The notes under the pieces are model-generated. The model did no database searches and had not been told where the DNA came from. It saw nothing but the letters and a program-made list of their open reading frames with translations. Both the position numbers and the translations under genes were made by a program. From a virus, in the IMG/VR virus record IMGVR_UViG_3300050821_005389, positions 1 through 64,000 of that record: a DNA stretch of 64,000 nucleotides, one strand, 5' to 3'. This document shows, one piece after another, positions 5,396-41,653 of this stretch (within the stretch, counting starts at the first letter, position 1; each line of letters starts with the position of its first letter).

Positions 5396-5442
5396 GGCTA
5401 GGGGGTGCCATCACCACCCCCGGCCAACTCTGTGATGGAGAG
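5396..5442 (+). promoter_or_regulatory. Kissing-loop leader, copy 1
   Basis: GGGGGTG-[CCATCAC]-CACCCCC ... CTCT-[GTGATGG]-AGAG, then ATG 5446. Confidence 0.85.
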
Positions 5443-5445
5443 AAC

Positions 5446-6000
5446 ATGTATATTTCAGACGAACGCGCTCGGGAGATCAATCCCAATTTCGGTAAGGTAA
5501 AAGAACCAAAACCTAAATCTAAGCGTCAGCCAGTTTTTAAAGTAAAAGAGTTAGAAAAGCTAGTTCCTTTTGATTTCGCCGTCAGAACACCCAACACGGC
5601 TATGAAGGAGCTTTCAAAGCAGGTTTTACCAGCCGAGAAGTTTCGGCGCCAGATAAGTAAGCCTAGACTTGATTGTTCGCCGGTTTACGATAATATTTAC
5701 TTTATCGTTCCTGAAAACGAGCGGATGGTTAAGATTGGTCGATCAATCGATGTTCAGAGGCGATTGATAGATTTGCAAATAGGAAGTCCGGTTCGACTCC
5801 GAGTGTATGCTTCTTTCAGAGTTCCGCTTTCTCATAGCGTAAGCATTGAAGGGTATCTTCACTACGCATTTAAGAAACACTATCTTCACGGCGAGTGGTT
5901 TAAGTTTACTGCCGAGATGAAGCGAGCCGTAGATCGAGGGGCTGATTTGATACCGAGTGAAGCCGCACTAAATGATTACTTACAGTCGAGGTCGGCATGA
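5446..6000 (+). CDS. GIY-YIG-superfamily nuclease (T5orf172/MUG113-like)
   Basis: IYFI...VKIGRS.DV.RRL.DLQ.GSP..L...IE..LH..F...GEWF motif. Confidence 0.8.
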   Translation: MYISDERAREINPNFGKVKEPKPKSKRQPVFKVKELEKLVPFDFAVRTPNTAMKELSKQVLPAEKFRRQISKPRLDCSPVYDNIYFIVPENERMVKIGRSIDVQRRLIDLQIGSPVRLRVYASFRVPLSHSVSIEGYLHYAFKKHYLHGEWFKFTAEMKRAVDRGADLIPSEAALNDYLQSRSA

Positions 6001-6091
6001 CCACCCTTATAACCCTTTTCTCCTTTGTAACCTTCTCCGTGTCCTTTTCGCTCCTGTCGACCCAACTGGCTAGAATCAACAAAACAAAAAT

Positions 6092-6340
6092 ATGAATGAC
6101 TATACTACACCTGGTCGCGGACAGGCAGGCCCGTTCGGTAAAGAAGACGCTTCCGACCCTAAACCGCCGGCACAGCGCAACCCCGCAATCAAGGATCCCG
6201 GCCGCATCTGGCAAAGAGAAACTCGCGAAGGGCGCCCCTTGGACCCAAGCGGCAAGCTCAGAATCCAAACCGCCCGTCCGGATCTTAAACAAACCGGTCA
6301 TGTCGACCTAACCAGACTACCGAGGTTCAAGAAGATTTAA
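6092..6340 (+). CDS. Hypothetical protein
   Basis: ORF track; stop abuts next start (TAA ATG). Confidence 0.5.
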   Translation: MNDYTTPGRGQAGPFGKEDASDPKPPAQRNPAIKDPGRIWQRETREGRPLDPSGKLRIQTARPDLKQTGHVDLTRLPRFKKI

Positions 6341-6595
6341 ATGGGTGATTTTGATTTATATAACGTGTGGGACGGTACTAGAACTTTCTTGATTCACTGG
6401 TTTGTTAAGTTTCTGATGTTCGTTTTACCTTTATCGATAATCGAAGCTATAAACGAGAAGTTTCGTCGACCATGTGATTTTCATTTTCTTTATTATGGTA
6501 GTTGGAACGGTAGCTGTCTTTGGTGTGGAACTTGGCAAGGACGACAAAGCATTAAACCGGATGTTGTAGACATAAGAGAGGCAGAGGCGAAGTGA
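6341..6595 (+). CDS. Small membrane-associated hypothetical protein
   Basis: Hydrophobic stretch; coupled to neighbours. Confidence 0.55.
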   Translation: MGDFDLYNVWDGTRTFLIHWFVKFLMFVLPLSIIEAINEKFRRPCDFHFLYYGSWNGSCLWCGTWQGRQSIKPDVVDIREAEAK

Positions 6596-6807
6596 CTGAC
6601 ATCTTCGAACAAAACGGCATTTGCCGCCAGTGCGGCGTTCCCCACGGCCCCAACCCCTGCCCGAAGCGTGTGAACAGTGTACGAGCCTCGGAAGGGGTGC
6701 CAACCCCACCCGTAACGCCTCCCCCGGCGCCGTCAGAACCTTCGAAGGCAGTTTCATTGAACTCTCCTGGTTTTTGGGACTGGGCGAAACTTTGGAAAAT
6801 GACTTAA
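6592..6807 (+). CDS. Hypothetical protein (CxxC, Pro-rich)
   Basis: GTGA overlap with upstream gene. Confidence 0.55.
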   Translation: MTDIFEQNGICRQCGVPHGPNPCPKRVNSVRASEGVPTPPVTPPPAPSEPSKAVSLNSPGFWDWAKLWKMT

Positions 6808-6953
6808 TGGAACCCGAAAGCCTCGAGTCCCTTCTCCGCCAGTACCAAAACGTCCTGGAAGTAAAAAAGTACCTTCGCTACAAACTGGCCGAGCACGGCC
6901 TGAAGAACACCGACCAGATAGAAGAAGCCCTGGCCGAACTGGAGTACACCTAA
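6807..6953 (+). CDS. Small hypothetical protein (MEPESLESLL...)
   Basis: TAATG coupling at 6807; C-terminal part of track ORF 6621..6953. Confidence 0.55.
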   Translation: MEPESLESLLRQYQNVLEVKKYLRYKLAEHGLKNTDQIEEALAELEYT

Positions 6954-6956
6954 ATT

Positions 6957-7208
6957 ATGAACGCAAAAGAAGTTTACGAACAGAAAGCCGACCCATCTAT
7001 GGGCGTAAGTATTCCCGCCGTCAAAAGCGGACGTGGCTGCGACGACACCTTGACGCAAGCCGCAGGAGTCTCCGCGGTAACAAAATCGCCCAGCCCTGGT
7101 GGTCACGCTCAAGTAGGCGCCACACTCAAGGCCGTCAGAATTCAATCCGGTTACCGCCATCTCGACAACATGGTTCAGGAAAATCAAGACATCGAACCAA
7201 CTTACTAA
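6957..7208 (+). CDS. Hypothetical protein
   Basis: ORF track; tightly packed. Confidence 0.6.
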   Translation: MNAKEVYEQKADPSMGVSIPAVKSGRGCDDTLTQAAGVSAVTKSPSPGGHAQVGATLKAVRIQSGYRHLDNMVQENQDIEPTY

Positions 7209-7219
7209 TTAGGAGCAAC

Positions 7220-7855
7220 ATGAATCGAATCTTATCAGTTGTACTAATGGTCGCCATCACCTTGGCAACTATCCCAATGTCCGGTTGCAGCTCCACCAAC
7301 TTCGTCGCCGCCCTTAACGCCATTGTACCCGCCGCTACCGCCGTCATTGAAGTCATCGCCGTCTATGAAGGCAAGCCCGCTGATCCTAACGCCGCGCAAA
7401 AGATTGCCCAAGACGTAACTGCCGCAGAACAGTTCTACGCCGACTATCAAGCCGCATTGGCATCACTCGACGCCGGTCAAGTCGCTAGCACGAAACAAAA
7501 GCTTGAAGCCGGCCTTCAGGTTCTAGTCTCGGATATCGGTTTAATAGAACAAGTCGCCCAGATCAAGGATCCCGCAACTCAGGCCAAGGTCTCTGCACTG
7601 GTTCTCTTAATCCAAACTGGTATCAGTATCGCCGAAGCCGTCGCCGGAGTTCAGCCAGTACCGGTCGCCGCGAAGCTAGTCCGTGCAGGAATCAACCCGA
7701 ACTCGGTCAAAGACGTAAACTCTCTAGTCAAAGCCTTCAACCAGGTTCTTGTCGCTAAGACAGGCAATTCGAAAGTCGACGCTTATACTAGTAAGCACCA
7801 AGTCCACATTCACGGCAAGCTCGCCAGAGTAGCCAGCTTCGGGAAGTTGGCGTAA
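7220..7855 (+). CDS. Putative lipoprotein
   Basis: AGGAG RBS; hydrophobic signal ending in lipobox-like MSG-C. Confidence 0.7.
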   Translation: MNRILSVVLMVAITLATIPMSGCSSTNFVAALNAIVPAATAVIEVIAVYEGKPADPNAAQKIAQDVTAAEQFYADYQAALASLDAGQVASTKQKLEAGLQVLVSDIGLIEQVAQIKDPATQAKVSALVLLIQTGISIAEAVAGVQPVPVAAKLVRAGINPNSVKDVNSLVKAFNQVLVAKTGNSKVDAYTSKHQVHIHGKLARVASFGKLA

Positions 7856-8052
7856 TGCCGGTCGCCGTCGTAGTAATGGGGCTGGTATTAACTGCGTCAA
7901 CTATAGCTGTCAACGGCGCCAACTTCGTTCGAATTCTAAAAGGTGGTCAAGCTATTACTGCAAAATCCGCCAGGTTCGTTAGCCATAAATCGAAACAAGC
8001 GGCTCATAAATCCAAAATAGCGAGCAAAGCTGTAGTTAACTTCTTGAAGTAA
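7855..8052 (+). CDS. Small membrane protein with basic tail
   Basis: TAATG coupling; N-terminal TM segment. Confidence 0.55.
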   Translation: MPVAVVVMGLVLTASTIAVNGANFVRILKGGQAITAKSARFVSHKSKQAAHKSKIASKAVVNFLK

Positions 8053-8060
8053 AGGAGACT

Positions 8061-8789
8061 ATGCGTTTACGCGGAGCCTTCCCTTCCCCGAGACATAAAT
8101 TAGCCGCAGTTTCTCCACATCAACTTCTCGGCACTACACCCAGCCAGTTCCTTTGGAAACCGACGAAGTTGTCAATGTGGCTTAATGACGTAGATGGTGA
8201 TTGCGTCACGGCGGAAGAAGCTTTTAAGTGCGCCTGTAACAATCCGGAAATCTTCATTACAGATGACACTGTCCTTGCGTGGGCAACCGCCAACAATGTT
8301 TTAAACGGCGCCGATCTCACAACTGTAATGGACACGATGCGAACGGCCGGCTTTTCACAAGACAATAATTTGTATAATGACGGTCCGTACGTTTCAGTCG
8401 ACTGGACTAACGAAGCTGTTCTTCAGAACGCCATAGTACAAGGCCCAGTTAAGATCGGAGTAGCCGCCGACCAACTGGAACAAGCAGTAGGAACTGTCAA
8501 TCCTCCGCCAAGCGGTTGGGTCGCAACTGGTTTCCAGAAAGATACGAATGAAGATCATTGCGTCAGCCTTCCTGGTTTTGGTCCAGCAAGCTGGTTAGCG
8601 GAACAACTCGGCGTACCTTCGCCGGGAGACTTTCCGGCTTATGCTTTGTTTACTTGGAGCAGTATCGGGATTATAGACGTACCATCAATGCTAGCTATCA
8701 CAGGTGAAGCCTGGTTACGTAATCCCGGCACGATAACAGTTCCTCAGAATAAACAAACATGGCTAGATAAGATTAAGAAGTTTTTCTAA
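8061..8789 (+). CDS. Putative papain-fold cysteine peptidase
   Basis: NDVDGDCVTA (Cys) ... DHCV (His) ... FTW pattern. Confidence 0.55.
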   Translation: MRLRGAFPSPRHKLAAVSPHQLLGTTPSQFLWKPTKLSMWLNDVDGDCVTAEEAFKCACNNPEIFITDDTVLAWATANNVLNGADLTTVMDTMRTAGFSQDNNLYNDGPYVSVDWTNEAVLQNAIVQGPVKIGVAADQLEQAVGTVNPPPSGWVATGFQKDTNEDHCVSLPGFGPASWLAEQLGVPSPGDFPAYALFTWSSIGIIDVPSMLAITGEAWLRNPGTITVPQNKQTWLDKIKKFF

Positions 8790-9259
8790 TGCCGATCCGT
8801 ATTCAATTGGTAACAGAGAAGTGGAATCCCATTTCAGCCAGTATCCGTTACAGCACCCGAAGCTGGTGCTCACATATTGAATTTTGTGATCTATCCGCCG
8901 GCACAACATTGGGATCTCGCAGCATCGGCGGAGTTAAGATCCGCCCGTCAAGTAAAGATCATTACACCCGCGTTGAGCAGTTCGTTGTCGACGATTACAA
9001 AATAATGCAATCAGCTTACCATTGGGCATTAGGCCAGATCGGCAAGCCTTATGACTTCTCAGCTATTACCGGTATGGTCGTTGATCGAGATTGGCGCAAT
9101 GAATCTAAGTGGTTCTGTTCCGAACTCATCGCCGCCGCATTCGAAGCCGTCGACTATCCACTGTTGTCAACCCGGCCTAGCGTCGGTGTTTACAGAATAA
9201 CACCTCGAGATTTACTTCTTTCAAGACAGTTAACTTTTATTACAGGCACCGGAATATAA
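8789..9259 (+). CDS. Permuted papain-like amidase (YaeF/YiiX, C92-like)
   Basis: SHIE...GKPYDF...WFCSELIA motif order. Confidence 0.8.
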   Translation: MPIRIQLVTEKWNPISASIRYSTRSWCSHIEFCDLSAGTTLGSRSIGGVKIRPSSKDHYTRVEQFVVDDYKIMQSAYHWALGQIGKPYDFSAITGMVVDRDWRNESKWFCSELIAAAFEAVDYPLLSTRPSVGVYRITPRDLLLSRQLTFITGTGI

Positions 9260-9292
9260 TCGCAGTAACAATAAACTAATAGGACGAAAACA

Positions 9293-9742
9293 ATGAAAGT
9301 ACCCGAATTGGTAAACGTAGGTCAAGCTCTGTGGAAAAAAGAATTAGAACTCGTACAAAAGAAGCACGGAAGAAAATTTAAGCAACAGGAAACATTCGAG
9401 CAAGCTAAAATAAGGCATCAGAGAGATTGTTCTCATTTAAAAGGCGGACCGAATCGTAACCGTCTTTCTCGAAAAGATTATAATGTATCCAAACATACTT
9501 TTATTGATTGTACCGTTAGAATTCGTTGCCTGACATGCGGGATGAAGTGGTTTAAAGACGACACTCGATCAATATTAATCAGAAACGGTAAAGAGCATAT
9601 AAATCACACGGGGTTGGGATGGACCGACGCGTTAAAGATGGTAGAAGATTCCACCAATACACCATCCGCTTCTGAACACTTTCCGCAATTTAAAAAAGAA
9701 GACGCGCATAAAAAAGGTCCAACGGAGTATTACACGGACTAG
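9293..9742 (+). CDS. Zinc-binding hypothetical protein, paralog of 26046..26645
   Basis: Shared CxHLKGG...C..C.MKW...NHTG.GW...STNTPS.SE. Confidence 0.75.
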   Translation: MKVPELVNVGQALWKKELELVQKKHGRKFKQQETFEQAKIRHQRDCSHLKGGPNRNRLSRKDYNVSKHTFIDCTVRIRCLTCGMKWFKDDTRSILIRNGKEHINHTGLGWTDALKMVEDSTNTPSASEHFPQFKKEDAHKKGPTEYYTD

Positions 9743-9748
9743 GAGTTT

Positions 9749-10129: not shown

Positions 10130-10135
10130 GAGATT

Positions 10136-10854: not shown

Positions 10855-10863
10855 AGGAGCTTT

Positions 10864-11085: not shown

Positions 11086-11140
11086 TTTTAAACGAAATTT
11101 GTTATAATGTAAATACCCTTTGATTAATTACCAAAGGTTA

Positions 11141-11187
11141 GATAGGGATATGCCTTAGACATATCCCTGTCGCATCTTCTAAGGAGA
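11141..11187 (+). promoter_or_regulatory. Kissing-loop leader, copy 2
   Basis: GATAGGGATATG-[CCTTAGA]-CATATCCCTGTC ... TCT-[TCTAAGG]-AGA; TGTTATAAT extended -10 at ~11100. Confidence 0.85.
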
Positions 11188-11190
11188 AAT

Positions 11191-11826
11191 ATGAAAGAAG
11201 TCTTATGTCACGAATGTAAGTGTGTTTTAACGGATGAGAATTGCGGTTCTAGTAGATTTAAGGAAAAAGGTTTAGCAGCTTATTGTCGTGTCTGTGATAA
11301 GAAGCGCTTAAAGAAATATAACGAAGAGAATAAAGAAAGGTTGCGTGAGTATAAAAGAGAAGCCTCGCTGGATTGGTATTATAAATTAAAGAATGATCCC
11401 GAGAGATGGGCTGCTCATGTTACTAAACAAAGGCAATTGTATAGAAAACTCTCACCGGAACAGAGGTCTGAATTATATCAAAAGAAAAAAGAATATCTTC
11501 GTAAAGATCACTGGAGTCGAAATAGGAAACACCACTACGGAATAACCGGCAAACAATTTCTTGAAAATTTAGCATCTCAAGATAACAAATGTGAGATTTG
11601 TCAAACAGAAATATCTTTTGAAGCCCCATCCAGAAAGTTTAGGCCACATCAAGATCACTGTCATTCGACAGGAGAGAATCGTGGGATTTTGTGTAACCTT
11701 TGTAATGTTTTGTTGGGCAACGCTCACGATAGTATAGAAATTCTTCTAAGCGCCGTTCGGTACTTAGAGAAGTACGCCGTAAGTAGTTCGATCCAAACTG
11801 AAAGCGTAATTAATAGCGGTGCTTAA
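11191..11826 (+). CDS. Endonuclease VII-like (His-Me) free-standing homing endonuclease
   Basis: YGIT...Q.NKCEIC...HQDHCHSTGENRGILCNLCN.LLG.A.D....L..A..YL. Confidence 0.85.
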   Translation: MKEVLCHECKCVLTDENCGSSRFKEKGLAAYCRVCDKKRLKKYNEENKERLREYKREASLDWYYKLKNDPERWAAHVTKQRQLYRKLSPEQRSELYQKKKEYLRKDHWSRNRKHHYGITGKQFLENLASQDNKCEICQTEISFEAPSRKFRPHQDHCHSTGENRGILCNLCNVLLGNAHDSIEILLSAVRYLEKYAVSSSIQTESVINSGA

Positions 11827-11915
11827 ATAAATTTTGAGTGCTCTATTAAAGCAGCAGTCCGGGGGAAATCAGCAGACCCTCTCGGCTGTTTGTATATAAG
11901 GGAGTAATTGTTTTT

Positions 11916-12515: not shown

Positions 12516-12547
12516 TTCTCCGCAGTCCTTCCCCACGTTTAAAAAGT

Positions 12548-12580
12548 CGACCCGCCTTTAAAAAGCGGGTCGCAAATTTT
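12548..12580 (+). terminator. Probable intrinsic terminator
   Basis: CGACCCGC/GCGGGTCG stem followed by an A/T-rich tail. Confidence 0.5.
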
Positions 12581-13874: not shown

Positions 13875-13922
13875 GGTTGGGTGTGCCTGATACACACCCG
13901 ACCTTATCCTTATCAGGAGGAT
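13875..13922 (+). promoter_or_regulatory. Kissing-loop leader, copy 3
   Basis: GGTTGGGTGTG-[CCTGATA]-CACACCCGACC ... ATCCT-[TATCAGG]-AGGAT; TGCTATAAT extended -10 at ~13859. Confidence 0.85.
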
Positions 13923-13927
13923 TAATA

Positions 13928-14737
13928 TTGAGAAATTTAAGAGATATTAGAAAACGTTCGCGTTACATTCGAGTACATACCCCGAATATATTACCGGAGT
14001 GTTTTGAACTTCAAAATCATATTTGTGACTTATGCGGTCAAGAAATTCAGTGTCTTGAAGTTGCTGAATTAGATCATTCTGTTTCTGTATATTATTTCGC
14101 ATCTAGCTCCTTGGATATTTTAGAAGCCGCGAAGCAATGTAATGGTCTAAATAATTTAAGGGCGGCTCACGCTCGTTGTAATTCTAAGAAAAGAATTCTT
14201 TGTCGCGACGAGTGGTTTGCGAAAGGAATGGATATTTTAGTGGGCTCGGCTCCTGTTTTAACTGAAGACGAAATTAAAACTTTGAAAGATCGTTCTATTG
14301 AGATAGGCCGCATAGGTGGCACAGCCGCGAATAAAAACCCTAGGAATCGAAATAGATTAAAGAGATATAGAACATTTGAAAGTTGTTCGGCGGGCGGGAA
14401 GGTTGGCGGAGCTAAAAACGTAGAAACAGGTCAAATTCTTAAATTGGGTGAGATACAGGGCGAACGAAATAAAAAGAGTGGCCACTGGGATAAAGTTAGA
14501 CTTTTGGGATCGCCTATTACTTCTGACAAAGCTAGAGAACAAGGTTTAAAAAATGTAGAGAGTGGTCATTTAGCAAGTCTTGATCAAGGGCATAAAAACG
14601 CAGCGAAGCCAGGCTATATGTCTAAAATAGGAAAAATTGGCGGGAAGAAAAGCGGCCCTATTGTTAGTCATGTGCGCTGGCATGTAAAACGAAATATTAT
14701 AAACCCAAATTGTTCTTTGTGTACTACTAGTTCTTAG
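13928..14737 (+). CDS. HNH endonuclease with C-terminal G(K/R)xGG repeats (true start probably TTG 13928)
   Basis: CDLCG...ELDH...NNLRAAHARCNSKK; AGGAGG RBS before the in-frame TTG. Confidence 0.8.
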   Translation: MRNLRDIRKRSRYIRVHTPNILPECFELQNHICDLCGQEIQCLEVAELDHSVSVYYFASSSLDILEAAKQCNGLNNLRAAHARCNSKKRILCRDEWFAKGMDILVGSAPVLTEDEIKTLKDRSIEIGRIGGTAANKNPRNRNRLKRYRTFESCSAGGKVGGAKNVETGQILKLGEIQGERNKKSGHWDKVRLLGSPITSDKAREQGLKNVESGHLASLDQGHKNAAKPGYMSKIGKIGGKKSGPIVSHVRWHVKRNIINPNCSLCTTSS

Positions 14738-18462: not shown

Positions 18463-20611
18463 AGAAAAGAATGTTTTAGTTAGAAAGTTTTCGAATGCCC
18501 TGAGTTCGGCTGCCGAAAAAGTTCAAGCATTGTTCATCGAACCCGCTGCGGAAATTGACGCTGCTGGTATTACACAAGATTCTGAGACAGATACTTACCA
18601 GTTTCAAGATAGGGCCGCAGTAGCATTAGTTCTGGAAGATATAGAGCGCGACGAAAATTTTGTAAACGTATTGCAGTGGGCGGCCGGCTGGACCTTGGCC
18701 GATACTTTGTATCAGTCGCCAACGATGGCTTCAGCGTTTGATGGCGGTAACGTCGCGCAGGCCAACGTTCCAAAATATACGTTATCAAATGTCGTTTCTT
18801 CCATAGTTCCTAAGTTAATGGAAGGATTGTTTTATGAAGATCCGCCATTTCTTCTTCGTCCTTTCCCCGGTACCGACCAACAGGTAATCCGAGCCAAGAC
18901 AGCTTTATTTTCTGAGCAACTCTGGGAAATGAAGTTTAAAGAAGAAACCGAACGTAGTCTTGAGCAAATGTGTCTTCTCGGCACTTGTATTATGAAGTGG
19001 GGCTTCTCTTCTTATACCAAGAAAATTAAGAAGTATAAGAGAAAGGCCGCACCGACTACTATCGATGTTCCCGGCGGTAAGCCTAAAGTTGTACATACAC
19101 CGCTGTCTGATGCTTTCGAGATAGTTTACGACGAGCAAGAATACGCCCGCCCGTGGATTAAGTATTGTGATATCAGAACTGTCTTCGTAGATTCCGGTTG
19201 TCGTTACGGCGATATTCGTCGAGCTGGCCATGTTAGTTATCGCGATTATGCGACGTACCAGGATCTGGATCACTATCGTGATTTAGACGGTTACGATATT
19301 CCGGATGAATCAACTCTTAAAGCTTTGTTCATGCGAGCCAATGAGTCTACTCCGGGCGCCGACAATATCAGTATGACCATCCCGGAGAATATGCGTGGTT
19401 ATATTCAGCACGCTGTTCCGCGGAATTATAAGACAACTTCCGATCCTATGAAAGCGCCGATCGAGATGATCGAGCGTTGGGATGCAGAAAGAATCATTGT
19501 CATCTTGTCTTGCAACGGTCACAACATTTTGATTCGCAACGAGCCTAATCCGTACGGCAAGATTCCTTTCTTGTCGGCTAACTGGCGCAATATACCAGAT
19601 TCGTTTTATGGCCAGGGATTAGGTTTACTGGTAGGAAGCGAACAATTGGTAGAGCAAGGCGTAACGAACCTGGCTTTGGATCTATTGGCTTATGGGCTAC
19701 AGCCTACCGCCGTTCGAAAGAAAGGTTTCAATACGCCGACGCAGAATACGCGTTGGGGATTAGGTCGCATAGTTGATGTTGACGATGATGTAGACAAATC
19801 GTTTAAGTTTATGACCATGCCGCCAGTTCCAGGTGAGGCGTGGCAATTTATTCAACAGGCTAAGTCTGATTCTGCTACTACTGCGGGCTCGAATGAACTA
19901 GTCGGCCAGGGTTCAACTTTATCCGGTGCTCGTACATCTGGTATGCGTTCCGGAACAGGCGCCGCCGCTGTCGTACAAGCCAATGCATCTCGGCTTGACG
20001 GGCCGATGAATCGATTCATAGAACAAATTTTTATCCCTTGGCTATATACCCTCGACGAACTCAACAACGATCTACTTCCTTCTACAGTTCTCCGCCAAGT
20101 ACTCGGTGAGAAGATGGAAGAAGATTTTGAAGTCGATCATGAACTCTTCCGCAACGCTAAAATTGAATACGAAGTTTTGGCCGGTGCTCACCTCGGTGCG
20201 AAGCGGTCGATGGCTCAAGCCATTCCTGAGTACCTACAGTTGATTAATAATCCTACTTATACAGCGAATATAAATGACGCTGGTTATATCTGGGACGGCA
20301 TAGCTGTCTTGGATGGATTGAATGAGTTGTCCGGTTGGAGATTTGGCAGACCATTTGTTCGTAAAATGACATCGGAAGAGAAGCAGAAACACGATGCTAA
20401 TACACCGGCAGCTTTGCAGCAACAGCAATTGCAGGCGCAACAGCAAAATCAATTGTTACAATTCCAGCAAGAAGAGAAGTTGGAAGATCAGCGCCAATTA
20501 GGAAAAGCGGGAGCCGAGGTATTAAGGCAAACCACTGAACACGCCTTGACCGAACCCGAAACAGAAGGCCTCCCGAGTTCGACTGGATTTGGAGATATTA
20601 CTGCTTTGTGA
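18452..20611 (+). CDS. Portal protein
   Basis: 719 aa directly after terL; NPYGKIPF...FYGQG motif; Gln-rich C-terminal tail. Confidence 0.85.
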   Translation: MADKEKNVLVRKFSNALSSAAEKVQALFIEPAAEIDAAGITQDSETDTYQFQDRAAVALVLEDIERDENFVNVLQWAAGWTLADTLYQSPTMASAFDGGNVAQANVPKYTLSNVVSSIVPKLMEGLFYEDPPFLLRPFPGTDQQVIRAKTALFSEQLWEMKFKEETERSLEQMCLLGTCIMKWGFSSYTKKIKKYKRKAAPTTIDVPGGKPKVVHTPLSDAFEIVYDEQEYARPWIKYCDIRTVFVDSGCRYGDIRRAGHVSYRDYATYQDLDHYRDLDGYDIPDESTLKALFMRANESTPGADNISMTIPENMRGYIQHAVPRNYKTTSDPMKAPIEMIERWDAERIIVILSCNGHNILIRNEPNPYGKIPFLSANWRNIPDSFYGQGLGLLVGSEQLVEQGVTNLALDLLAYGLQPTAVRKKGFNTPTQNTRWGLGRIVDVDDDVDKSFKFMTMPPVPGEAWQFIQQAKSDSATTAGSNELVGQGSTLSGARTSGMRSGTGAAAVVQANASRLDGPMNRFIEQIFIPWLYTLDELNNDLLPSTVLRQVLGEKMEEDFEVDHELFRNAKIEYEVLAGAHLGAKRSMAQAIPEYLQLINNPTYTANINDAGYIWDGIAVLDGLNELSGWRFGRPFVRKMTSEEKQKHDANTPAALQQQQLQAQQQNQLLQFQQEEKLEDQRQLGKAGAEVLRQTTEHALTEPETEGLPSSTGFGDITAL

Positions 20612-20640
20612 TATAATTAATTATAATTTGTAGCTACAAG

Positions 20641-20682
20641 GTAGGGGGTGCCTTAATCACCCCCGACTCTATTAAGGAGAGT
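20641..20682 (+). promoter_or_regulatory. Kissing-loop leader, copy 4
   Basis: GGGGGTG-[CCTTAAT]-CACCCCC ... ACTCT-[ATTAAGG]-AGAGT; TGATATAAT extended -10 overlapping the portal stop. Confidence 0.85.
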
Positions 20683-20684
20683 AA

Positions 20685-21311
20685 ATGCCGTATAAAACTT
20701 TAAAAGCTAGGAAAAAGTATCTTAAGAAAAATAAAAAGCGTTTTAGAGAATATAAAAAACGATACAGTGCGGAACATCGAGAAGAGATTAAAAAGTATAA
20801 TTTTCAATATAAATCAAAACATAAAGCCGAACTTAAAAAGAAACGTAAAAAGTACGTTTTAAATAATCTAGAGAAGATACGTAAGGCTACAAAAGCATGG
20901 CGTTTTAAAAACAAAGAACATCTTAAGAATTACGAACAAGAATACGCTAAGAAAAATCAATCCGCTATTAAAGCGCGTCATCGAATTTACCATAAGAAAA
21001 ATAAAGCCAAGATCAAAATGTATCCATCCAACTCGCCCGCCAATAGGATGGCTATTCACCGCAAGTTTAAGTACGGACTAAGTCACGATCAGTTTCTAGA
21101 AAAACTTAAAATTCAAAAGAAGCGATGTGCTATATGTAAGCGTAAATTTTATACGCAGTGTGGAGCACCGTGTGTTGACCACGATCACGACACGAATAAG
21201 GTTCGAGACTTGTTGTGCCAGCACTGTAATAGAGCATTAGGCCTTTTTAAAGAAGAAATAATCTGTTTTGAGAACGCAATCCAATACTTAAAGAAACATA
21301 AGGAACAATAG
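20685..21311 (+). CDS. Endonuclease VII-like free-standing homing endonuclease
   Basis: KYGLS...Q...CAICK...CVDHDHDTNKVRDLLCQHCNRALGLF; basic N-terminal repeats. Confidence 0.85.
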   Translation: MPYKTLKARKKYLKKNKKRFREYKKRYSAEHREEIKKYNFQYKSKHKAELKKKRKKYVLNNLEKIRKATKAWRFKNKEHLKNYEQEYAKKNQSAIKARHRIYHKKNKAKIKMYPSNSPANRMAIHRKFKYGLSHDQFLEKLKIQKKRCAICKRKFYTQCGAPCVDHDHDTNKVRDLLCQHCNRALGLFKEEIICFENAIQYLKKHKEQ

Positions 21312-23086: not shown

Positions 23087-24763
23087 ATGGCAGGACCGAA
23101 TCCAGCAGCACAGAACGTAGGAAATATTCTTACGGCTCAAAGTATTTTGTTCAAATCGGACTCCTAACAGCGCGATCTGTTAGTAGACAATTCTCTCTTA
23201 TTGGCTTGAACTCCCGAGCGGACAACAAGGCGGAAGTCGAAAGACACCGTGAACGACTAAGCGAGAGAAGACCCACAATAATCGGGTCATACGATAGTCT
23301 GCTCTCATAAGACAACAATTATGAGAAGTTAGCAGAAATGACTAACTCGTTATCAACAGATAACGTAACAAATAGGTGATAAGGAATTGATCCCTAACTT
23401 GAAGGGAGAAACTGACGCGTTTGTTACTGTTGCAGAACGCCGAGTTCAACCTTTGAACATGGGTATCAATCGTACGTTTTTCCAGTACAATACGTTGGGT
23501 GCAGATCTTGCACAATCAGCGGACGGTACTGTCGGTTCACCGGAACTAATTTCCCAGATTTCAGCGCCCGCGCAAGTCGGAGAATGGAACAACTACTCGA
23601 ATTTTTCCGCCTTCGTCGTGGCGTCTGCAATCGACGATCTCGTTCCTAACTCAGCGGTCGAACTTGGCTATCAATGCGGCCAGTCGATTTCTGAATTGTA
23701 CAGCGCAGTAGCGGATTCCGCATCTGGCGTCGACGCTAACGTCAACCAGTCAGGTTTGCTTTCTTCGCCGTATACGCTTGATCTCGGTACATACCGAGAG
23801 CTTAAGCAGCAATTGGTTTCCCACAACATTCTCGCGTGCAAGCGCGGGAAGTATTTGGGCGTAGTTAGCTCAAATGTTTTGGGCGATATTTACAATGCGA
23901 CAACGGTTAACAACTCCATTATCGACTTCCTGAAGTACGGAATGCAGGAGAAGTTCGATAAGATGGCGGGTTCCGATCAGAAGGCAGAAATCGAATTGCC
24001 TGGTACCAATATCGTGATCCGTCAGACTCCTTTTGTCACTACTACCGCGAATTATAAGTCTGGTACGTCTACAGCGTATCGCTCGTATGTTTTCGGTAAT
24101 TACGCGATGATTGGAGTTTGGTTGGAAGTGCCGGGTGACACCGATCTTGACGAAGGCGATTGGAGAACAATCGATTGCCGCGTTGTGACGGATGCACCGG
24201 CGACATCGTTTGACCCCACGGCTAAAAGTTGGCCCCTCGCAGCGTAATCTGATGAGGAGAATCGATTCTAATTGAACTGGAAAACTTCTAATCGAAGTTG
24301 ACAGCGCGGAAGTCGAAAGACACCGTTAACGAGCAAACGAATCGACAGCCGAAAGGCTGAAGTGGTGCTCTGAACATCGTAAGTGATTACGAGAAGCTAG
24401 CAGAAATGACTAGCTCGTTATCAAAAGATAACGTAACAAATTTGACAATTGGGGCGTGGTGTTCGTATCGATTCCATTTACAAAGTTTGGTGGAATTAAA
24501 ATTTCCTCTGATTGACTCGAAAGGTGAGATTCCCAACGAGGCGCAAGCGAAAGCAGCGTGAGAGACTAAGCGAGGAAAGGTAATCGAGAGATTATCATTC
24601 AATAGTCCGAACACTAGTTAACATGAAGCTAGTGAAGTTGACAGAAATGATCAACTCTTATCGAAAGATAAAGTAACAAATGCAAACCGTAACGTTGCCC
24701 CCGGCCACTGGATTGAATACCCAACGTATTCGTTTCATTGACTCGGTTCCGGCAATTCAGTAG
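23087..24763 (+). CDS. Major capsid protein, spliced: exons 23087-23151, 23377-24223, 24445-24477, 24683-24763 (341 aa)
   Basis: GAGGT RBS before ATG 23087. The joined exons give an uninterrupted frame MAGPNPAAQ...SILF/DKELIPNLK...FDPTA/TIGAWCSYRFH/QTVTLPP...VPAIQ*. Position after scaffold. Confidence 0.85.
23152..23376 (+). ncRNA. Group I intron 1 (225 nt, no ORF)
   Basis: Exon ends in U, intron ends in G; P3 TTCTCTC/GAGAGAA; P7 GACTA(23255)/TAGTC(23295). Confidence 0.85.
24224..24444 (+). ncRNA. Group I intron 2 (221 nt, no ORF)
   Basis: P1 GGCT/GGCC with U.G pair; P3 TCGATTC/GAATCGA; P7 GAGCA/TGCTC; terminal G. Confidence 0.85.
24478..24682 (+). ncRNA. Group I intron 3 (205 nt, no ORF)
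   Basis: P1 TTCCAT/GTGGAA with U.G pair; P10 GTTTG/CAAAC; P3 TTTCCTC/GAGGAAA; P7 GACTA/TAGTC; terminal G. Confidence 0.88.
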
Positions 24764-24766
24764 TAT

Positions 24767-24795
24767 TTGACACAATAGCAATATTGTGATACTAT
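24767..24795 (+). promoter_or_regulatory. sigma70-like promoter for the downstream endonuclease
   Basis: TTGACA-N17-TACTAT with extended TG. Confidence 0.7.
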
Positions 24796-24796
24796 A

Positions 24797-24853
24797 TAAG
24801 ATTGAGGGGTGTGCCCTATACACATCCCTCATCTTAACTCTTGTAGGGAGAGT
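24797..24853 (+). promoter_or_regulatory. Kissing-loop leader, copy 5
   Basis: TGAGGGGTGTG-[CCCTATA]-CACATCCCTCA ... ACTCT-[TGTAGGG]-AGAGT. Confidence 0.85.
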
Positions 24854-24855
24854 AA

Positions 24856-25431
24856 ATGACAAAGGTTGAAAAACGCAAGAAAGCCACTTCCAAAATGAGG
24901 AAGTGGAGAAAGAAAAATAAACAGCGTAATTTAGAAAACGGGCGCCGGTGGCGAAAAGATAACGTAGAAAAAGCAAGAGCGAAGAATAGAAAACATTATT
25001 GGAATAATCGGGAAGATATGCTCGCTAGAAATAAAGCTTACTATCCTGAATATTACGCAAAGAATGATATCAAAAGTAAACGACGGCTACGTCAACACGG
25101 TGTTACGCAAGAGTGGTTAGACGCAAAGATGTTGGAACAAGACGGCAAATGTGCTCTTTGTAAACAGCCGTTTACCGAAACACCGCACATCGATCATAAC
25201 CATATTTGTTGTCAATCGCGAAGGAATTGTGGAACGTGTCAACGCGGTTTGTTGTGTAAAGATTGCAATCTCGGACTCGGAAGATTTAAAGACAATACTC
25301 AAACTTTAGAAAACGCCATTCAATATCTTCGAAGGTATAATAATGAGTTGGTCAGTCAACCCCCAATACAAACCGCTGGAAGCACCCTGGAAAGAAACGC
25401 ACAACCAGAAGGTCACTCAGCAATCAATTAA
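24856..25431 (+). CDS. Endonuclease VII-like free-standing homing endonuclease
   Basis: HGVT...QDGKCALCK...HIDHNH.CC...C..CQRGLLC..CN.GLG.FKD. Confidence 0.85.
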   Translation: MTKVEKRKKATSKMRKWRKKNKQRNLENGRRWRKDNVEKARAKNRKHYWNNREDMLARNKAYYPEYYAKNDIKSKRRLRQHGVTQEWLDAKMLEQDGKCALCKQPFTETPHIDHNHICCQSRRNCGTCQRGLLCKDCNLGLGRFKDNTQTLENAIQYLRRYNNELVSQPPIQTAGSTLERNAQPEGHSAIN

Positions 25432-37044: not shown

Positions 37045-37050
37045 GGATTC

Positions 37051-37773
37051 ATGTCTTACACTCTACAGCAAACTATAAATTGGGCGCAGACATATGTTCA
37101 GTATATTCCTTTAACTGCGGGAACGGGAAATGAGCCTGCTATTTCTATAGGTAATACGGTTCAATCTACCATTTTAAACGCACCTTTTGTTTGGCCATTT
37201 AATCGTAACGAATTTCCGATTGTTTTAGTCACGGGTCAACAAGATTATGTTTTTGATGTAACCGACTTTGCTTATTTAGAAAAAGTTTCGTTGTTAAGCG
37301 CGGACGGTAGTGATGGTTTTGAAGTCAAGGATGTTTATAACACGAATATTTTAGGATTGGCGGCAACAGGTAGTACGGCTCAACCCAATGCTGTTGCTGT
37401 GAAACTATATACTCCGGATACCAGTATTGCGCTGCGATTTTTAAGTAATCCCGATCAAGCGTACACCGGAACGTTAACTTATCAAGTTATTGTAGATCCT
37501 TTTACTGCTTTGGACGACCCTTGGGCGCCGATTCCCGACAGTTTCATTGACATTTTTAATAACCTTTTCTTGGCTGAAGTCATGGCTGTCGCAGATGATG
37601 CTCGAGAACAGCTTTATCGTCAACGTGGTATCGCTGCTCTCTTATCTAAGGCAGAAGGTTTGACTGAAATGCAGCGTAACGTTTATCTCGCTCAGTATCT
37701 TGCCCGCGGCTCTTCTATGACGTTGGCTGCGCAATTGAGAACGCAACAGGCAATTCAAGCGCGTGGGTTGTAA
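37051..37773 (+). CDS. Head-tail adaptor (tail tubular A-like)
   Basis: TLQQ.INWA...N......PF.WPF...GQQDY...APIPD; lies before the nozzle gene. Confidence 0.6.
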   Translation: MSYTLQQTINWAQTYVQYIPLTAGTGNEPAISIGNTVQSTILNAPFVWPFNRNEFPIVLVTGQQDYVFDVTDFAYLEKVSLLSADGSDGFEVKDVYNTNILGLAATGSTAQPNAVAVKLYTPDTSIALRFLSNPDQAYTGTLTYQVIVDPFTALDDPWAPIPDSFIDIFNNLFLAEVMAVADDAREQLYRQRGIAALLSKAEGLTEMQRNVYLAQYLARGSSMTLAAQLRTQQAIQARGL

Positions 37774-40700
37774 TGGCGCCTAATTTACTTCAGAACGCAG
37801 GCGCACAGCCGAACAAGCAACCGAAATATGTTCCGATTTTTATCGATCGGGCGTTTACCGGCATCTGGACGCAGCGTTCTGTACTTCACGATCCCTCGGA
37901 TATTGCGACGGCCCACTTTTATGGCGGTAGGCCGGATGCTCTTTGGCAAGGTTCAAACGTAGAGTTAACTAACAGATTGACGCTGCAACGCCGTCCCGGA
38001 TTGACTCCTTTTTCCGCCGCGACTTATCCGACGCCTCCGCAACGAGCTTTTGCGTTTGAATTAACCAACGGAACGATTCGGGTAATTATCGATACAGGTC
38101 CGAGTCCGGTATTTAATCTGTCATCAGTAAACGCGATTAGCGGTGCGGCGTATTATATCTTTACGTCGCCCGTGACATGCGCGGCGAATAATGCTTACGT
38201 CGGATTGATTTTTAACATCACCGGATTTGACCAGACGACTAATAACGGCGCATTCACTTGTACCGCTTCGACAAGTAGTTATTTACTTCTTTCGAATGCC
38301 TCGGCTATTAACGATACTTCGGCGGCGACCGCGGTAACTTCCGGTGGAGTTTATTGGGATACACAAGTCGGCGGTATTAGTTATCTGCTGTTTGCTAAAT
38401 CGGCTGATGCGGGTCAGACCGGATTTGTTTCCGTCGCTGGTACGCTTTATATGGGTGACGGCGTTGATACTAGGAAGTATACGCCGCTTAATAACAACGG
38501 TACGATTGCTAATAGTGTTGCCGGTCAAGGATCGATTTGGAATTATAGTATTGCCGCGCCGACTAGCCAGCCGGCTGTCACTATAGTAGAGTCCGGTGCA
38601 TCCGCTGTCCCTTGGGAGTCGTCGACATTTTACTCGACGATGGGCCTGTTAGTTGACAGTAACGGTAACATTGAGTACCTAACCGGTATTAATAATTCCG
38701 GAACCAATACTACTCAGTTCGGAACGACTGGCCAAGGGCAACCGCAGTGGAGTAGCGTTACTGGTAACCCGCCTGCGTCTGGTGAAGACGGTAGTTGTAA
38801 CTGGCTTTGCGCCGGGTCGTTATCTTTGTGGCAATCACAGACTGCCTACACCACCGGCGCTTGTATCTACGTTCCTGGTGTTGGCGGAACACCGCTGCCC
38901 GCTTTTTCAGAAACCAACGGGAATAATACCGGTGTCGGAGTTAATTGTCCTGGTACAACCGGTGGCGGTATTTGGCAAGCGTTTCCACACGGTGGTACTT
39001 CTGGATCGTCGACTCCTAAGTGGAGTCCGATTTCTAATACTCATACCGACGATTTTAATGGTACTGGTTCGAATGATATCGAGTGGCAATATCTCGGTCC
39101 GGCTATTCTATGGCAGCCTAACCACATTTATAACTCGTGGTGGGAACATCTCCAGATGTGCGTCGTTGAGCCATCTTTGCCTAATTTAGCTCTTCTTGAA
39201 GCTGGAACTCAGACGATTTTCGTTCAAACAAATAATAATCAATCTACTGGCAGTGTCAACGTTCAAGGAACTTCTGGATCCGGATATACTCCGCCGTGGC
39301 CTCTAGCAGCCAATACTAGCCCTAGTTCAGTAGGTCAAACTACGGGCGACGGCGATTTACAGTGGATTTGTCTCGGTTGGGGAACTTGGAAAGTTGACAC
39401 CGAATACGTTGCGTGGACCGCTGGCGCCAGCCAATTTAGTGCTATTAAAGACGGTAACAACAATTTTCAAGTTTGTCTTCAGGGTGGATTGTCTGGAATC
39501 AACATTGCTGCTACGCCTTATAACGGTTGGTTGCCTTCGCATGTTTATGCTACTAGCGCATTGATCGCGGTTAAGAGTACGGGTGGTTATTATCAATTTT
39601 CTGTATTGTTTGGCGGAGGAACTAGTAGTAGATCTACCGAACCGGTTTGGAATTTTACTACAGGTAATAACACGCATGACGGCAGCATAACTTGGCGATG
39701 CAACGGCCCGTTGCCGGCCAGTCAAGCGGTTTGGGGAACTACGTATGGTGCTCAGACACGAGATAACGAAGTTATTTGGACGTGTGTTGGCTCGGCAGTA
39801 GATTCTACCTGGACAGCTAGTACTCAGTGGTATTTTCCGGCCAGCGGTTTTGCTGCACCTACGTCCTCACAGGCTTACGGTGGTGCGGAAGTCATCGCAA
39901 ACGGCGATGTTCAAATTGTAATTGATTCCGGATTATCTGGATCGGCTACGCCGCATTGGGGGGCTATTGGTACTACCACGCAAGACGGTTTTGCTGTTTG
40001 GTATACCAATTCAGTTGTAAGTCCGAATTCGTTAGCGTGGCAAGTCGGATATGTTTACGCATATTCTTATAAAGCCCGCTCGTTAGACGATTATTATTCT
40101 ACACCGAGTTACGTTTATACAGGACCCGGACAGAGTACTTTCCAGATTCCGATTCCTCCGGGATTGAAATCAGCGTTACCGCCGCCATCAGGCTCGGAGA
40201 CGGAAGGTATTTCTACCGCCTCGCCGGTGTTTACAATCACAGGCGTGAATGCTGGCGCGGTTAACTATGTTACGGTTACAGGTTCTTTAGATCCGCAAGT
40301 TGACACGATTGTTATTTGGCGGTCTGCTGACGGGGGCGGACCGAGTAACATGTTCGAGTTGACCGAGATACCTAACCCAAAGCCAGTCAACGGGGCGCCG
40401 GGTGTAGCAACTTTTGCAGATTATTTACCAGATGTGGCTACTCTTTCGGCGACAGGGGTATTGTATCCTGGACTTGATGAAGAAATACCCGCTCCAATTG
40501 ACGGTATAAACAATCCCCCGTTAAGCAATTTTATTCCTATGACGTATAATTTTCAGCGGATATGGGGTGCGGCTGGGCAAGAAGTTCTTTGGAGTGGTGG
40601 TCCCGATACGTTGACAGGCACCCCGAATGAAGCTTACAACGTGTCGGATAATTTCAGTTACCTCGCGAACGTAACTAGAATAGTTAAGAATTCGCAAGGC

Positions 40701-41591
40701 CAAGTAGTTTTTTTAACCGACAGCGTAGAATTTATTGCGGGCGGCCCATCGACTCAATCATTTTTTTCTATAACGCTAGCCCCTGGAATAGGCTTAAATA
40801 ACTTTAACGCCGTCGATGTTTATGCTGGAGATCTGGTCTTCTTTTCATCTGATTCACAGTTGAAAAGCATTAACCCCTCTTTGCAATTGGCTAATATGGG
40901 TTTTCCGATCGGAGATCAGTTAGCTCTACTAGATTCGTCCGAAGTTGGCGTGGCGTATCACCAAAACGGAATCGATAATGCAATTTACGTAAGCGATAAC
41001 GATACCGGTTGGTGGCGTGTAAATCCTAGACAAATTCCGGGCGGCCTCAACGGCCCCGAGCCCGTCTGGAGCACTTTTTCCGCGATCACGGGCGGGGCGG
41101 GTATGGTTCAATCTGTTGAAACAACTCCCGGTATTAAGCAACTTTTAGTGGGTGGTACGGGGTGTAATCAACAAATATTGGTTAGGAATTTAAACGTATT
41201 TACCGATTATGTAAATGGGGTACAAACCCCTTACGATGCTTATTTTGTTATGGGTAGTGTGGTTTTAGCGCATCCCGGCCAATTGGCTATTTTACGTTTT
41301 ATTGAAATGGATTGTAGTGGCGTAAATTATCAACCTGTTGTTTCGGTTCTATTGAATGAGATTTCGGGAAATTTCCAAGTGCTCCCAACGACAGATGTTT
41401 TTGATCCGCCTAGCTTGTATGGTACTACAATCTCTCCTACGAGTTATTCTCCCCAAAGGTGGTATTTTGCGTCGACCGGTAGTTTAGCTCGCGCACGTCA
41501 TATACAAATAAAATGCGATCTAGGAACCACGAGTAATGGGGATGAAGTCTTGTCGCTAACAATTTACGGACGACTTATGGTAGAATTATAA
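37773..41591 (+). CDS. Tail nozzle / tubular protein B-like with inserted Trp-rich repeats
   Basis: N-terminal FTG.......NVEL...TLQRRPG; central PxW...G.T.DG...W.C.G repeats. Confidence 0.6.
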   Translation: MAPNLLQNAGAQPNKQPKYVPIFIDRAFTGIWTQRSVLHDPSDIATAHFYGGRPDALWQGSNVELTNRLTLQRRPGLTPFSAATYPTPPQRAFAFELTNGTIRVIIDTGPSPVFNLSSVNAISGAAYYIFTSPVTCAANNAYVGLIFNITGFDQTTNNGAFTCTASTSSYLLLSNASAINDTSAATAVTSGGVYWDTQVGGISYLLFAKSADAGQTGFVSVAGTLYMGDGVDTRKYTPLNNNGTIANSVAGQGSIWNYSIAAPTSQPAVTIVESGASAVPWESSTFYSTMGLLVDSNGNIEYLTGINNSGTNTTQFGTTGQGQPQWSSVTGNPPASGEDGSCNWLCAGSLSLWQSQTAYTTGACIYVPGVGGTPLPAFSETNGNNTGVGVNCPGTTGGGIWQAFPHGGTSGSSTPKWSPISNTHTDDFNGTGSNDIEWQYLGPAILWQPNHIYNSWWEHLQMCVVEPSLPNLALLEAGTQTIFVQTNNNQSTGSVNVQGTSGSGYTPPWPLAANTSPSSVGQTTGDGDLQWICLGWGTWKVDTEYVAWTAGASQFSAIKDGNNNFQVCLQGGLSGINIAATPYNGWLPSHVYATSALIAVKSTGGYYQFSVLFGGGTSSRSTEPVWNFTTGNNTHDGSITWRCNGPLPASQAVWGTTYGAQTRDNEVIWTCVGSAVDSTWTASTQWYFPASGFAAPTSSQAYGGAEVIANGDVQIVIDSGLSGSATPHWGAIGTTTQDGFAVWYTNSVVSPNSLAWQVGYVYAYSYKARSLDDYYSTPSYVYTGPGQSTFQIPIPPGLKSALPPPSGSETEGISTASPVFTITGVNAGAVNYVTVTGSLDPQVDTIVIWRSADGGGPSNMFELTEIPNPKPVNGAPGVATFADYLPDVATLSATGVLYPGLDEEIPAPIDGINNPPLSNFIPMTYNFQRIWGAAGQEVLWSGGPDTLTGTPNEAYNVSDNFSYLANVTRIVKNSQGQVVFLTDSVEFIAGGPSTQSFFSITLAPGIGLNNFNAVDVYAGDLVFFSSDSQLKSINPSLQLANMGFPIGDQLALLDSSEVGVAYHQNGIDNAIYVSDNDTGWWRVNPRQIPGGLNGPEPVWSTFSAITGGAGMVQSVETTPGIKQLLVGGTGCNQQILVRNLNVFTDYVNGVQTPYDAYFVMGSVVLAHPGQLAILRFIEMDCSGVNYQPVVSVLLNEISGNFQVLPTTDVFDPPSLYGTTISPTSYSPQRWYFASTGSLARARHIQIKCDLGTTSNGDEVLSLTIYGRLMVEL

Positions 41592-41607
41592 AGTTGTGGC
41601 TAACAAA

Positions 41608-41653
41608 TAGGGGGGTGCCAGTTACACCCCTCTAATCCTTTAACTGGAAGGAT
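41608..41653 (+). promoter_or_regulatory. Kissing-loop leader, copy 6
   Basis: TAGGGGGGTG-[CCAGTTA]-CACCCCTCTA ATCCTT-[TAACTGG]-AAGGAT; TGGTAGAAT extended -10 at ~41578. Confidence 0.85.

Follow-up and report, generated by a model that had tools for sequence, protein, structure and literature searches.

Leader copies and the genes they precede

The window examined here comprises 64,000 nucleotides (nt) and is the first 64 kb of the 117,043-bp IMG/VR record IMGVR_UViG_3300050821_005389, the genome of an uncultured phage with a completeness rated 100%. It contains six plus-strand copies of a sequence element of about 50-60 nt, each situated directly before a nuclease gene, which we regard as a 5' leader RNA that moves with free-standing genes of the homing-endonuclease type as one cassette. 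The genes encoded by the phage include those for a terminase, a portal protein and a tail lysin, and the window sequence is present in runs labelled soil metagenome. In the search for cultured relatives, megablast with 6 kb of the window yielded no match and the terminase had two distant relatives only, such that no close cultured relative of the phage was found.

The six copies share one design. A G-rich stem, P1, is topped by 5'-TG...CA-3' and carries a 7-nt loop of the form CCNNNNN. It is followed by a short stem, P2, whose loop has the form NNNNNGG and is the exact reverse complement of loop 1 in the six copies, with a single G.U pair (loops at 24814/24842). The Shine-Dalgarno (SD) sequence is completed by the 3' strand of P2 (AGAG, AGGAT and similar), and the start codon follows 2-5 nt further on. 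The original prediction had described the six copies in these terms, and all of them are present on the plus strand with the design and the loop complements as described; in the copies inspected, the SD is shared by loop 2 and the 3' side of P2. The scores given below in bits were obtained with R1, a covariance model built from the 50 sequences of an alignment, A2.

In copy 1 (5395..5448), the P1 core (5401-5407/5415-5421) encloses loop 1 (5408-5414, CCATCAC) and may be extended by 5395-5399/5422-5426 across a bulge at 5400. P2 (5428-5431/5439-5442) encloses loop 2 (5432-5438, GTGATGG), the SD, GGAGAG, occupies 5437-5442, and the ATG at 5446 opens a T5orf172/MUG113 gene (5446-6000; 44.7 bits). 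Copy 2 (11141..11193) consists of P1 at 11141-11152/11160-11171, loop 1 at 11153-11159 (CCTTAGA), P2 at 11175-11177/11185-11187 and loop 2 at 11178-11184 (TCTAAGG), followed by the ATG at 11191 of an Endonuclease_7 gene (11191-11826; 37.2 bits). Upstream of it lies a hairpin or palindrome (11117-11137), which is itself preceded by a -10-like site, TGTTATAAT. Copy 3 (13875..13930), with P1 at 13875-13885/13893-13903, loop 1 at 13886-13892 (CCTGATA), P2 at 13906-13910/13918-13922 and loop 2 at 13911-13917 (TATCAGG), scores 52.3 bits and has the -10-like site TGCTATAAT immediately 5' of it; its gene (13928-14737) starts with TTG at 13928 and has only weak PHROG matches, to endonuclease VII (EndoVII) and HNH families (E ~1e-4).

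Copy 4 (20644..20687) has the highest score of the six, 57.2 bits. Its P1 (20644-20650/20658-20664) and loop 1 (20651-20657, CCTTAAT) are followed by P2 (20666-20670/20678-20682), loop 2 (20671-20677, ATTAAGG) and the ATG at 20685 of an Endonuclease_7 gene (20685-21311). The region 5' of it (20590..20639, plus strand) contains a promoter-like TGGAGA-16-TATAAT with TG, the -10 of which ends at 20617, and a 12-bp palindrome, TTGTAGCTACAA (20628-20639), which adjoins the leader and recurs upstream of many IMG/VR members of the family. In copy 5 (24797..24858), P1 (24803-24813/24821-24831) may be extended by 24797-24801/24832-24836 across a bulge at 24802. Loop 1 (24814-24820, CCCTATA), P2 (24837-24841/24849-24853) and loop 2 (24842-24848, TGTAGGG, with the G.U pair) precede the ATG at 24856 of a third Endonuclease_7 gene (24856-25431; 44.6 bits), and at 24767..24795 on the same strand there is a near-consensus promoter-like TTGACA-17-TACTAT with TG, whose spacer (24773-24789) contains the 8-bp palindrome CAATATTG. 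Copy 6 (41608..41661; 35.7 bits) has P1 at 41608-41617/41625-41634, loop 1 at 41618-41624 (CCAGTTA), P2 at 41635-41640/41648-41653, loop 2 at 41641-41647 (TAACTGG), an SD-like GGAAGGA at 41646-41652 and an ATG at 41659, where a gene (41659-42549) assigned to PHROG HNH families (E 5e-8) begins. The gene families named in the original prediction were thus recovered with two nuances, the weak PHROG matches of the gene at 13928 and the assignment of that at 41659 through PHROG HNH families. In the three Endonuclease_7 proteins the domain lies at the C-terminal end of a protein of about 200 residues.

A degenerate P1 pattern matched the window 10 times, compared with 2.0 matches expected; the 10 consist of the six sites, three of these on the opposite strand and one unrelated match. 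R1 applied to the whole genome revealed exactly six copies, with E values from 2.8e-16 to 1.9e-9, and the next match was partial (E 0.375). The statement that no copy precedes any other gene is borne out.

A viral family with three covarying helices

Two scans of IMG/VR with the pattern of the P1 hairpin and the CC alone yielded 85 distinct contexts. In 36 of them a perfect 7-nt complement of the context's own loop occurs no more than 37 nt downstream, just before an SD and a start codon, compared with 1.3 when the downstream DNA was shuffled and 1.8 (maximum 8) when the loops were permuted among the contexts. The 36 contexts contain 23 distinct loop sequences. When all loci were scanned with the structure taken into account, 53 candidates emerged, from which two (L134 and L204) without P2 and SD were dropped, leaving 51 members; one GC-rich, doubtful member (L037) was excluded from the 50-sequence alignment A2.

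P1, the loop-loop helix and P2 all covary. In A2, 97.2% of the cells are paired, relative to 77.5% in shuffles, none of 500 of which was as high, and 46-55% when the partners were slid by 1-3 columns. Changes on both sides were found in 5 of the 7 pairs of P1, in 5 of the 7 pairs of the loop-loop helix, as anticipated from the six copies in the original prediction, and in 4 of the 5 pairs of P2. Part of A2 had been selected for complementary loops, whereas P2 was not used for picking; the fair tests are the contexts chosen by P1 only (36 of 85), the P2 columns and two independent samples.

When R1 was run on 99 IMG/VR loci, 60 matches of at least 31 bits were set apart from hairpin-only matches of at most 27 bits. 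Of 12 inspected R1 matches that the scanner had not picked, eight (seven distinct) have a perfect complement, and in five of these both loops are 6 nt long; the others are one with a complement one base off (L062) and three hairpins without an SD context. The second independent sample consisted of 17 loci fetched by other means, 15 with an intron motif (see below) and 2 with a protein. It contained seven matches of at least 43.8 bits, which represent six distinct sequences, each with a perfect complement; of the weaker matches in the same loci, one of 16 bits has a perfect 6-nt complement and one of 21 bits has four pairs only. R1 found no leader match in the two loci fetched with one EndoVII protein.

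All 50 sequences agree at the P1 columns T, G, C, C and C, A, and the G runs are almost as constant, whereas the five inner positions of the loop and the linker are free to vary. Only the sense strand tolerates G.U pairs. Members occur across many unrelated phage backgrounds, and one contig (L005) has an identical loop in two cassettes. Judged by its sequences, the element is a widespread viral RNA family, and the members in IMG/VR together with the covariation bear out the proposal of a conserved, portable element common to unrelated nuclease families. R1 covers only the G-rich subfamily. At two loci (L033 and L058), on the strand opposite the pattern match, the same G-rich hairpin occurs four times each with another loop, followed by a TGTAGTACA-like motif, an SD and an ATG; this repeated design is without a loop complement and may be a related leader type.

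The genes downstream of the leaders encode 56 distinct proteins. Pfam identified Endonuclease_7 in 18 of them, GIY-YIG in 10 (with NUMOD3 in 9), HNH, HNH_3 or HNH_5 in 5 and T5orf172/MUG113 in 2. Enrichment upstream of nucleases had been predicted as a check with a covariance model, and 24 of the 25 commonest downstream PHROG families are indeed endonucleases (EndoVII, HNH, "endonuclease", "homing endonuclease"), the odd one being the Srd anti-sigma factor family (five members).

Anatomy of the upstream region

The contiguous P1 is often 10-16 bp long, and in 28 of the 51 members P2 begins no more than 3 nt after it. Apparent linkers of at least 4 nt are found in the other 23, but in 12 of these the linker pairs with the 5' flank of P1 across a 1-nt bulge or a small internal loop, compared with 2.7 expected by chance and a maximum of 8 in 1000 shuffles. 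With these extensions counted, the gap between P1 and P2 is at most 3 nt in 40 of the 51 members and amounts to 1, 3, 2, 1, 0 and 0 nt in the window copies.

Promoter-like sites, either TTGACA-N17-TAnnnT or an extended -10, lie 5' of many members. Those in the window precede copies 5, 4 and 3; the overall regional frequency of such sites is not above chance. In most cases only a few nt separate the end of the -10 site from P1 or its extension, which would place P1 at the extreme 5' end of a transcript started from the cassette's promoter. The possibility that transcripts from the cassette's own promoter lack the P1 extension, as in T4, was considered and set aside, since in the TTGACA-N17 class the extension starts about 5 nt past the -10 and is probably transcribed; only copy 5 would lose it. 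Mimicry of the SD by the 5' strand of P1 was likewise dropped, half of the members having GGGTGTG.

A palindrome of at least 8 nt occurs within 35 nt upstream in 28 of the 51 members, in contrast to 6.8 expected. It is placed either between the -10 site and P1, as is TTGTAGCTACAA in copy 4, or in the promoter spacer, as are palindromes of the GTTGCAAC type or CAATATTG in copy 5. Because the spacer position is not transcribed, we interpret the palindromes as putative DNA operators of some regulator rather than as an RNA dimerisation loop.

Searches outside the viral set

In Rfam 15 no family matched the window at its gathering score, and none that was relevant matched the surroundings of copies 2-4 at E <=10; the element is absent from Rfam. 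The sub-threshold matches, to CLRN1-AS1, DUF2815 RNA (12.7 bits, relative to a cut-off of 41.2) and the L20 leader, are unrelated and none recurs among the copies. The literature searched contained no description of the leader, nor did a search for DUF2815 together with an RNA motif return one. Neither a 2026 preprint on noncoding sequence space nor Weinberg 2017 (PMC5737381) mentions endonucleases or kissing in its main text, though a motif of this kind might be listed in the supplement of either.

Among cellular genomes, bacterial and archaeal, at least 140 matches to the P1 pattern were listed in 120 stretches, and 12 of the matches have some complement within 40 nt. Among the matches listed, none of these 12 has the SD and start arrangement and there was no convincing cellular member; the best score of R1 on 100 of the 120 cellular loci was 30.3 bits, and the two best matches lack a complement. 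Five whole genomes of cultured phages with EndoVII-type genes contained no R1 match, although the same tool recovered the six copies described here, and BLAST of a 64-nt leader against cultured phages returned chance-level matches only. The upstream 14-mer TTGTAGCTACAAGG proved to be a poor probe of IMG/VR, as the leader was present in 2 of at least 92 distinct contexts.

Metatranscriptome contigs revealed that the leader region occurs in RNA libraries. The contigs do not allow starts, ends or levels to be read, and parts of the stretch that they leave uncovered carry no meaning. One 151-nt contig from an RNA library spans the leader of copy 4 and may be DNA carry-over.

Proposed mode of action

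The most likely function is repression of translation in cis through hiding of the SD. The form of it that we consider probable is a translation throttle in which a pseudoknot between loop 1 and the SD would alternate with a fold made of the P1 extension and P2, which would keep the nuclease scarce. In the cassette, a promoter-like site would be followed by the leader and the nuclease gene. The very stable, G-rich P1, located close to or at the transcript's 5' end, would form first, and its pre-organised loop CCNNNNN would capture the emerging NNNNNGG, the last two letters of which open the SD. What is left of the SD (AGAG-like) would pair with a short pyrimidine stretch just upstream to form P2. 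Through alternation of the two folds one or the other half of the SD would always be paired, and with at least half of the SD paired at any time binding of the 30S subunit would be hindered and the nuclease level would be low. In vivo the RNA presumably folds as drawn here.

Folding predictions provide support for structure at the start of the genes. Of the translation starts in the genome, those behind a leader are the most structured, with -19 to -24 kcal/mol as compared with a median of -9.4 for 66 other SD-bearing open reading frames (ORFs), and the folding z-scores of five of the six copies range from -2.2 to -4.4. The loop duplexes are put at -5.0 to -9.1 kcal/mol whereas P2 is weak (-1.4 to -6.4 kcal/mol), and the nested fold covers only the AGAG half of the SD, within P2.

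Several observations do not fit easily with a throttle of this kind. The folding z-score of copy 1 is only -0.8. When only nested pairs are allowed, the SD is about as accessible as that of other genes, its unpaired probability being 0.24-0.75 compared with a genome median of 0.56. Because the SD is ordinary in that fold and P2 is weak, any repression would have to come from the pairing of the loops. Searches of the genome for nuclease families identified two nuclease-domain genes outside the window that are without a leader, an HNH gene (68263-69009, minus strand), in which the HNH domain is fused to a further C-terminal domain, and an EndoVII gene (98832-99203, minus strand), whose 123-residue product looks like an ordinary resolvase; GIY-YIG and HNH_3 genes were not found in these searches. 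The claim that the leader precedes all six free-standing nuclease genes is correct within the window but does not extend to the genome. Since these two genes lack it, the leader is a mark of cassette-type nuclease genes and not of every nuclease.

The most serious difficulty is steric. It was estimated from fibre coordinates of A-form RNA, with the helices kept rigid and each backbone step set to 6.5 A, which gives a crude estimate and not a structure prediction. Under these assumptions P1, the 7-bp loop helix and P2 can be stacked in cis in 4 of the 51 members and in none of the six window copies, in which the linker would have to span 53-81 A; with P1 frayed to its 7-bp core the arrangement fits 22 of the 51. 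The literal kissing-loop fold in cis, as originally drawn, is thus doubtful. An H-type pseudoknot, in which P2 is open and its 5' strand serves as the crossing loop, has the loop complement and a long enough connecting loop 3 (linker plus 5' strand of P2) in 34 of the 51 members with the full P1, including 4 of the 6 window copies; it fits 51 of 51 only if P1 frays to the 7-bp core. In cis, the loops would then presumably pair as an H-type pseudoknot in alternation with P2 and not as a three-helix kissing complex. According to the same crude model, the covarying P1 extension, P2 and loop helix are unable to coexist in cis in most members, and an intermolecular complex or a switch therefore fits at least as well.

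In the intermolecular model, loop 1 of one mRNA would kiss loop 2 of another copy head to tail, thereby burying the SD. P1 and P2 would be stacked as a rod with a complementary loop at each end and 7-bp contacts between rods, the SD would be hidden only at a high transcript level, and nuclease synthesis would be limited by the dose of its own mRNA. The short distance between P1 and P2 in 40 of 51 members and the pairing of 12 of the 23 long linkers with the 5' flank are in favor of such a rod, and it is the sole arrangement in which P1, its extension, P2 and the loop helix are all formed in 47 of the 51 members. As the six loops of the phage are all different, each mRNA would pair with itself alone. 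The phi29 pRNA ring and bicoid mRNA dimers were likewise inferred from complementary loops that are unable to meet in cis. If the model is true, the leader would turn each mRNA into a multimer that titrates itself, every gene having a loop "code" of its own, and we know of no such multimer among bacterial or phage messages. However, the geometry on which it is founded is a crude rigid-helix estimate, the pseudoknot in cis is feasible with P2 open in 34-51 of the 51 members and would be favored by proximity, and the contig L005 uses one loop in two cassettes. We consider the intermolecular model unlikely. A regulated switch, in which a trans-acting factor such as a phage or host RNA-binding protein recognises the G-rich P1 with its UG/CC/CA top and thereby opens or tightens the lock, would resemble Com on the mom mRNA of Mu. 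It would explain why the sequence of P1 itself is conserved and strand-asymmetric, with columns that are invariant in 50 of 50 sequences, a constraint that structure alone does not require; the CC and GG are, however, accounted for by SD pairing, the linker is variable, no candidate protein is seen to co-occur (no search aimed at one was made), and the members occur in many unrelated phage backgrounds, which leaves the switch rather improbable.

Two further explanations place the primary function elsewhere. Protective 5' stem-loops of mRNAs are known, and the -10-like sites that end a few nt 5' of P1 or its extension would put P1 at the very 5' end, where the stem might protect a short mRNA; alternatively, the long P1/P2 helix might be a processing site at which the cassette is detached from read-through transcripts, with SD pairing secondary in either case. 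Neither stability nor processing accounts for a loop that matches, in every member, the 7 nt ending in the SD, and little probability is assigned to them. The leader might also act as DNA, as a recombination hot spot, a cassette end for gene shuffling or a hairpin promoter, in keeping with its location at the 5' edge of mobile cassettes and with the excess of upstream palindromes (28 of 51 compared with 6.8 expected). Arguing against this are the restriction of G.U pairs to the sense strand, the orientation of all members with the gene, the inclusion of the SD in every complement and the covariation of P2 with the SD variants, which together make a DNA-level function very improbable. The translation throttle in cis remains the model that we prefer.

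Putative introns near a leader-bearing gene

Soil metatranscriptome contigs contain two joints within a gene of the window, 23151>23377 in one run and 24223>24445 in three runs from three studies. Two inserts, 23152-23376 (225 nt) and 24224-24444 (221 nt), are thus skipped exactly in RNA-library contigs, and when both joints are made a single open frame runs through both junctions to a stop. The interrupted gene, which follows the portal gene and a scaffold-like gene, is probably the capsid gene; in PHROGs it has a weak match to a family of unknown function only. Both inserts are preceded by T and have G at their end, and their common core, which recurs in 15 IMG/VR stretches, resembles the R and S elements of group I introns. 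No intron family of Rfam matched the inserts, even at E <=10. We regard the inserts as two small putative introns that would be removed by splicing.

Both in the window and in five or more of these stretches, a leader-bearing nuclease gene lies about 270-560 nt 3' of the intron core. The loci with both an intron core and a leader-bearing nuclease gene are the window (24224-24858) and L326, L327, L334, L337, L338 and L340, and their introns are without an ORF. The nuclease beyond the intron is of the EndoVII type in the window, and GIY-YIG-like N-terminal sequences are found in several of the loci. The combination of an intron and an adjacent free-standing nuclease gene recalls collaborative homing. 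Elsewhere in the window, a very long ORF of 2120 residues occupies 57600-63962 of the minus strand.

Relation to known systems and significance

Structures that sequester the ribosome-binding site (RBS) regulate the homing-endonuclease genes I-TevI, I-TevII, I-TevIII, segB and mobE of Aeh1 (Edgell, Gibb and Belfort 2010, PMC2988022). Like these T-even hairpins, the leader is predicted to form a stable RNA structure that would include the SD and lies directly 5' of the ORF, it serves GIY-YIG and HNH genes, and its presumed purpose is the restraint of a risky nuclease. As described in that review, the T-even structures are simple hairpins that share no sequence family, whereas the leaders constitute one conserved family in front of at least four nuclease families; in the T-even phages the hairpin is relieved by a late or middle promoter that lies within it, whereas the promoter-like sites of the leaders lie 5' of the whole structure (PMC2988022). 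There would be no room for an embedded promoter, given that the sites are 5' of P1 and that P1 and P2 are no more than 3 nt apart in 40 of 51 members; the promoter-like site of copy 5 would remove no more than the optional P1 extension. In the leader the SD is reached by a hairpin loop, as pseudoknot or kissing complex, and no mechanism of relief is visible. The leader would thus act like the T-even RBS hairpins but stands outside that kind, because it has no promoter inside and its SD is reached by a loop. SD sequestration on the leaders of homing endonucleases was already known; what would be new is a conserved, portable pseudoknot or kissing family.

Small leaders in which a hairpin loop pairs with downstream nucleotides or with those of a neighbouring loop, including the SD, are also found among the preQ1-type pseudoknots and in the guanidine-II riboswitch. 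Unlike these, the leader has no conserved ligand pocket, its inner loop positions and linker vary, and it has no match in Rfam. The guanidine-II (mini-ykkC) riboswitch consists of two hairpins with conserved ACGR tetraloops, while the loops of the leader are 7 nt, sometimes 6 nt, long and read CCNNNNN and NNNNNGG. Fully complementary loops also occur in intermolecular loop-loop RNAs such as the phi29 pRNA ring, the dimers of bicoid and oskar mRNA and the 7-nt kissing loops of ColE1 RNA I and RNA II. The leader resembles them in its fully complementary, covarying loops of 6-7 nt, which in most members are blocked from meeting in cis with the stems intact (crude model); it differs from them in being a translation leader. 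The three EndoVII genes of the window, one of which follows an intron-bearing gene, resemble the F-CphI family of EndoVII-motif homing endonucleases (Mob DNA 2018, PMC6083498), a paper that deals with the protein and, in the part examined, does not mention a leader RNA.

The selfish genes of lytic phages are chiefly homing endonucleases, and the restraint that spares their carrier from damage is, to our knowledge, understood in a few T-even cases only. A module of about 55 nt that is common to at least four unrelated nuclease families in many uncultured phages would be a new class of structured RNA. Its small size, the freedom of its inner loop positions and its all-or-none signal, a perfect complement per member, make it easy to test and would make it a reusable, tunable translation throttle. 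On the steric problem hangs whether the leader is an ordinary pseudoknot or works between molecules, which would be far more unusual. The leader would be a general answer to the question of how the selfish nucleases of phages are restrained.

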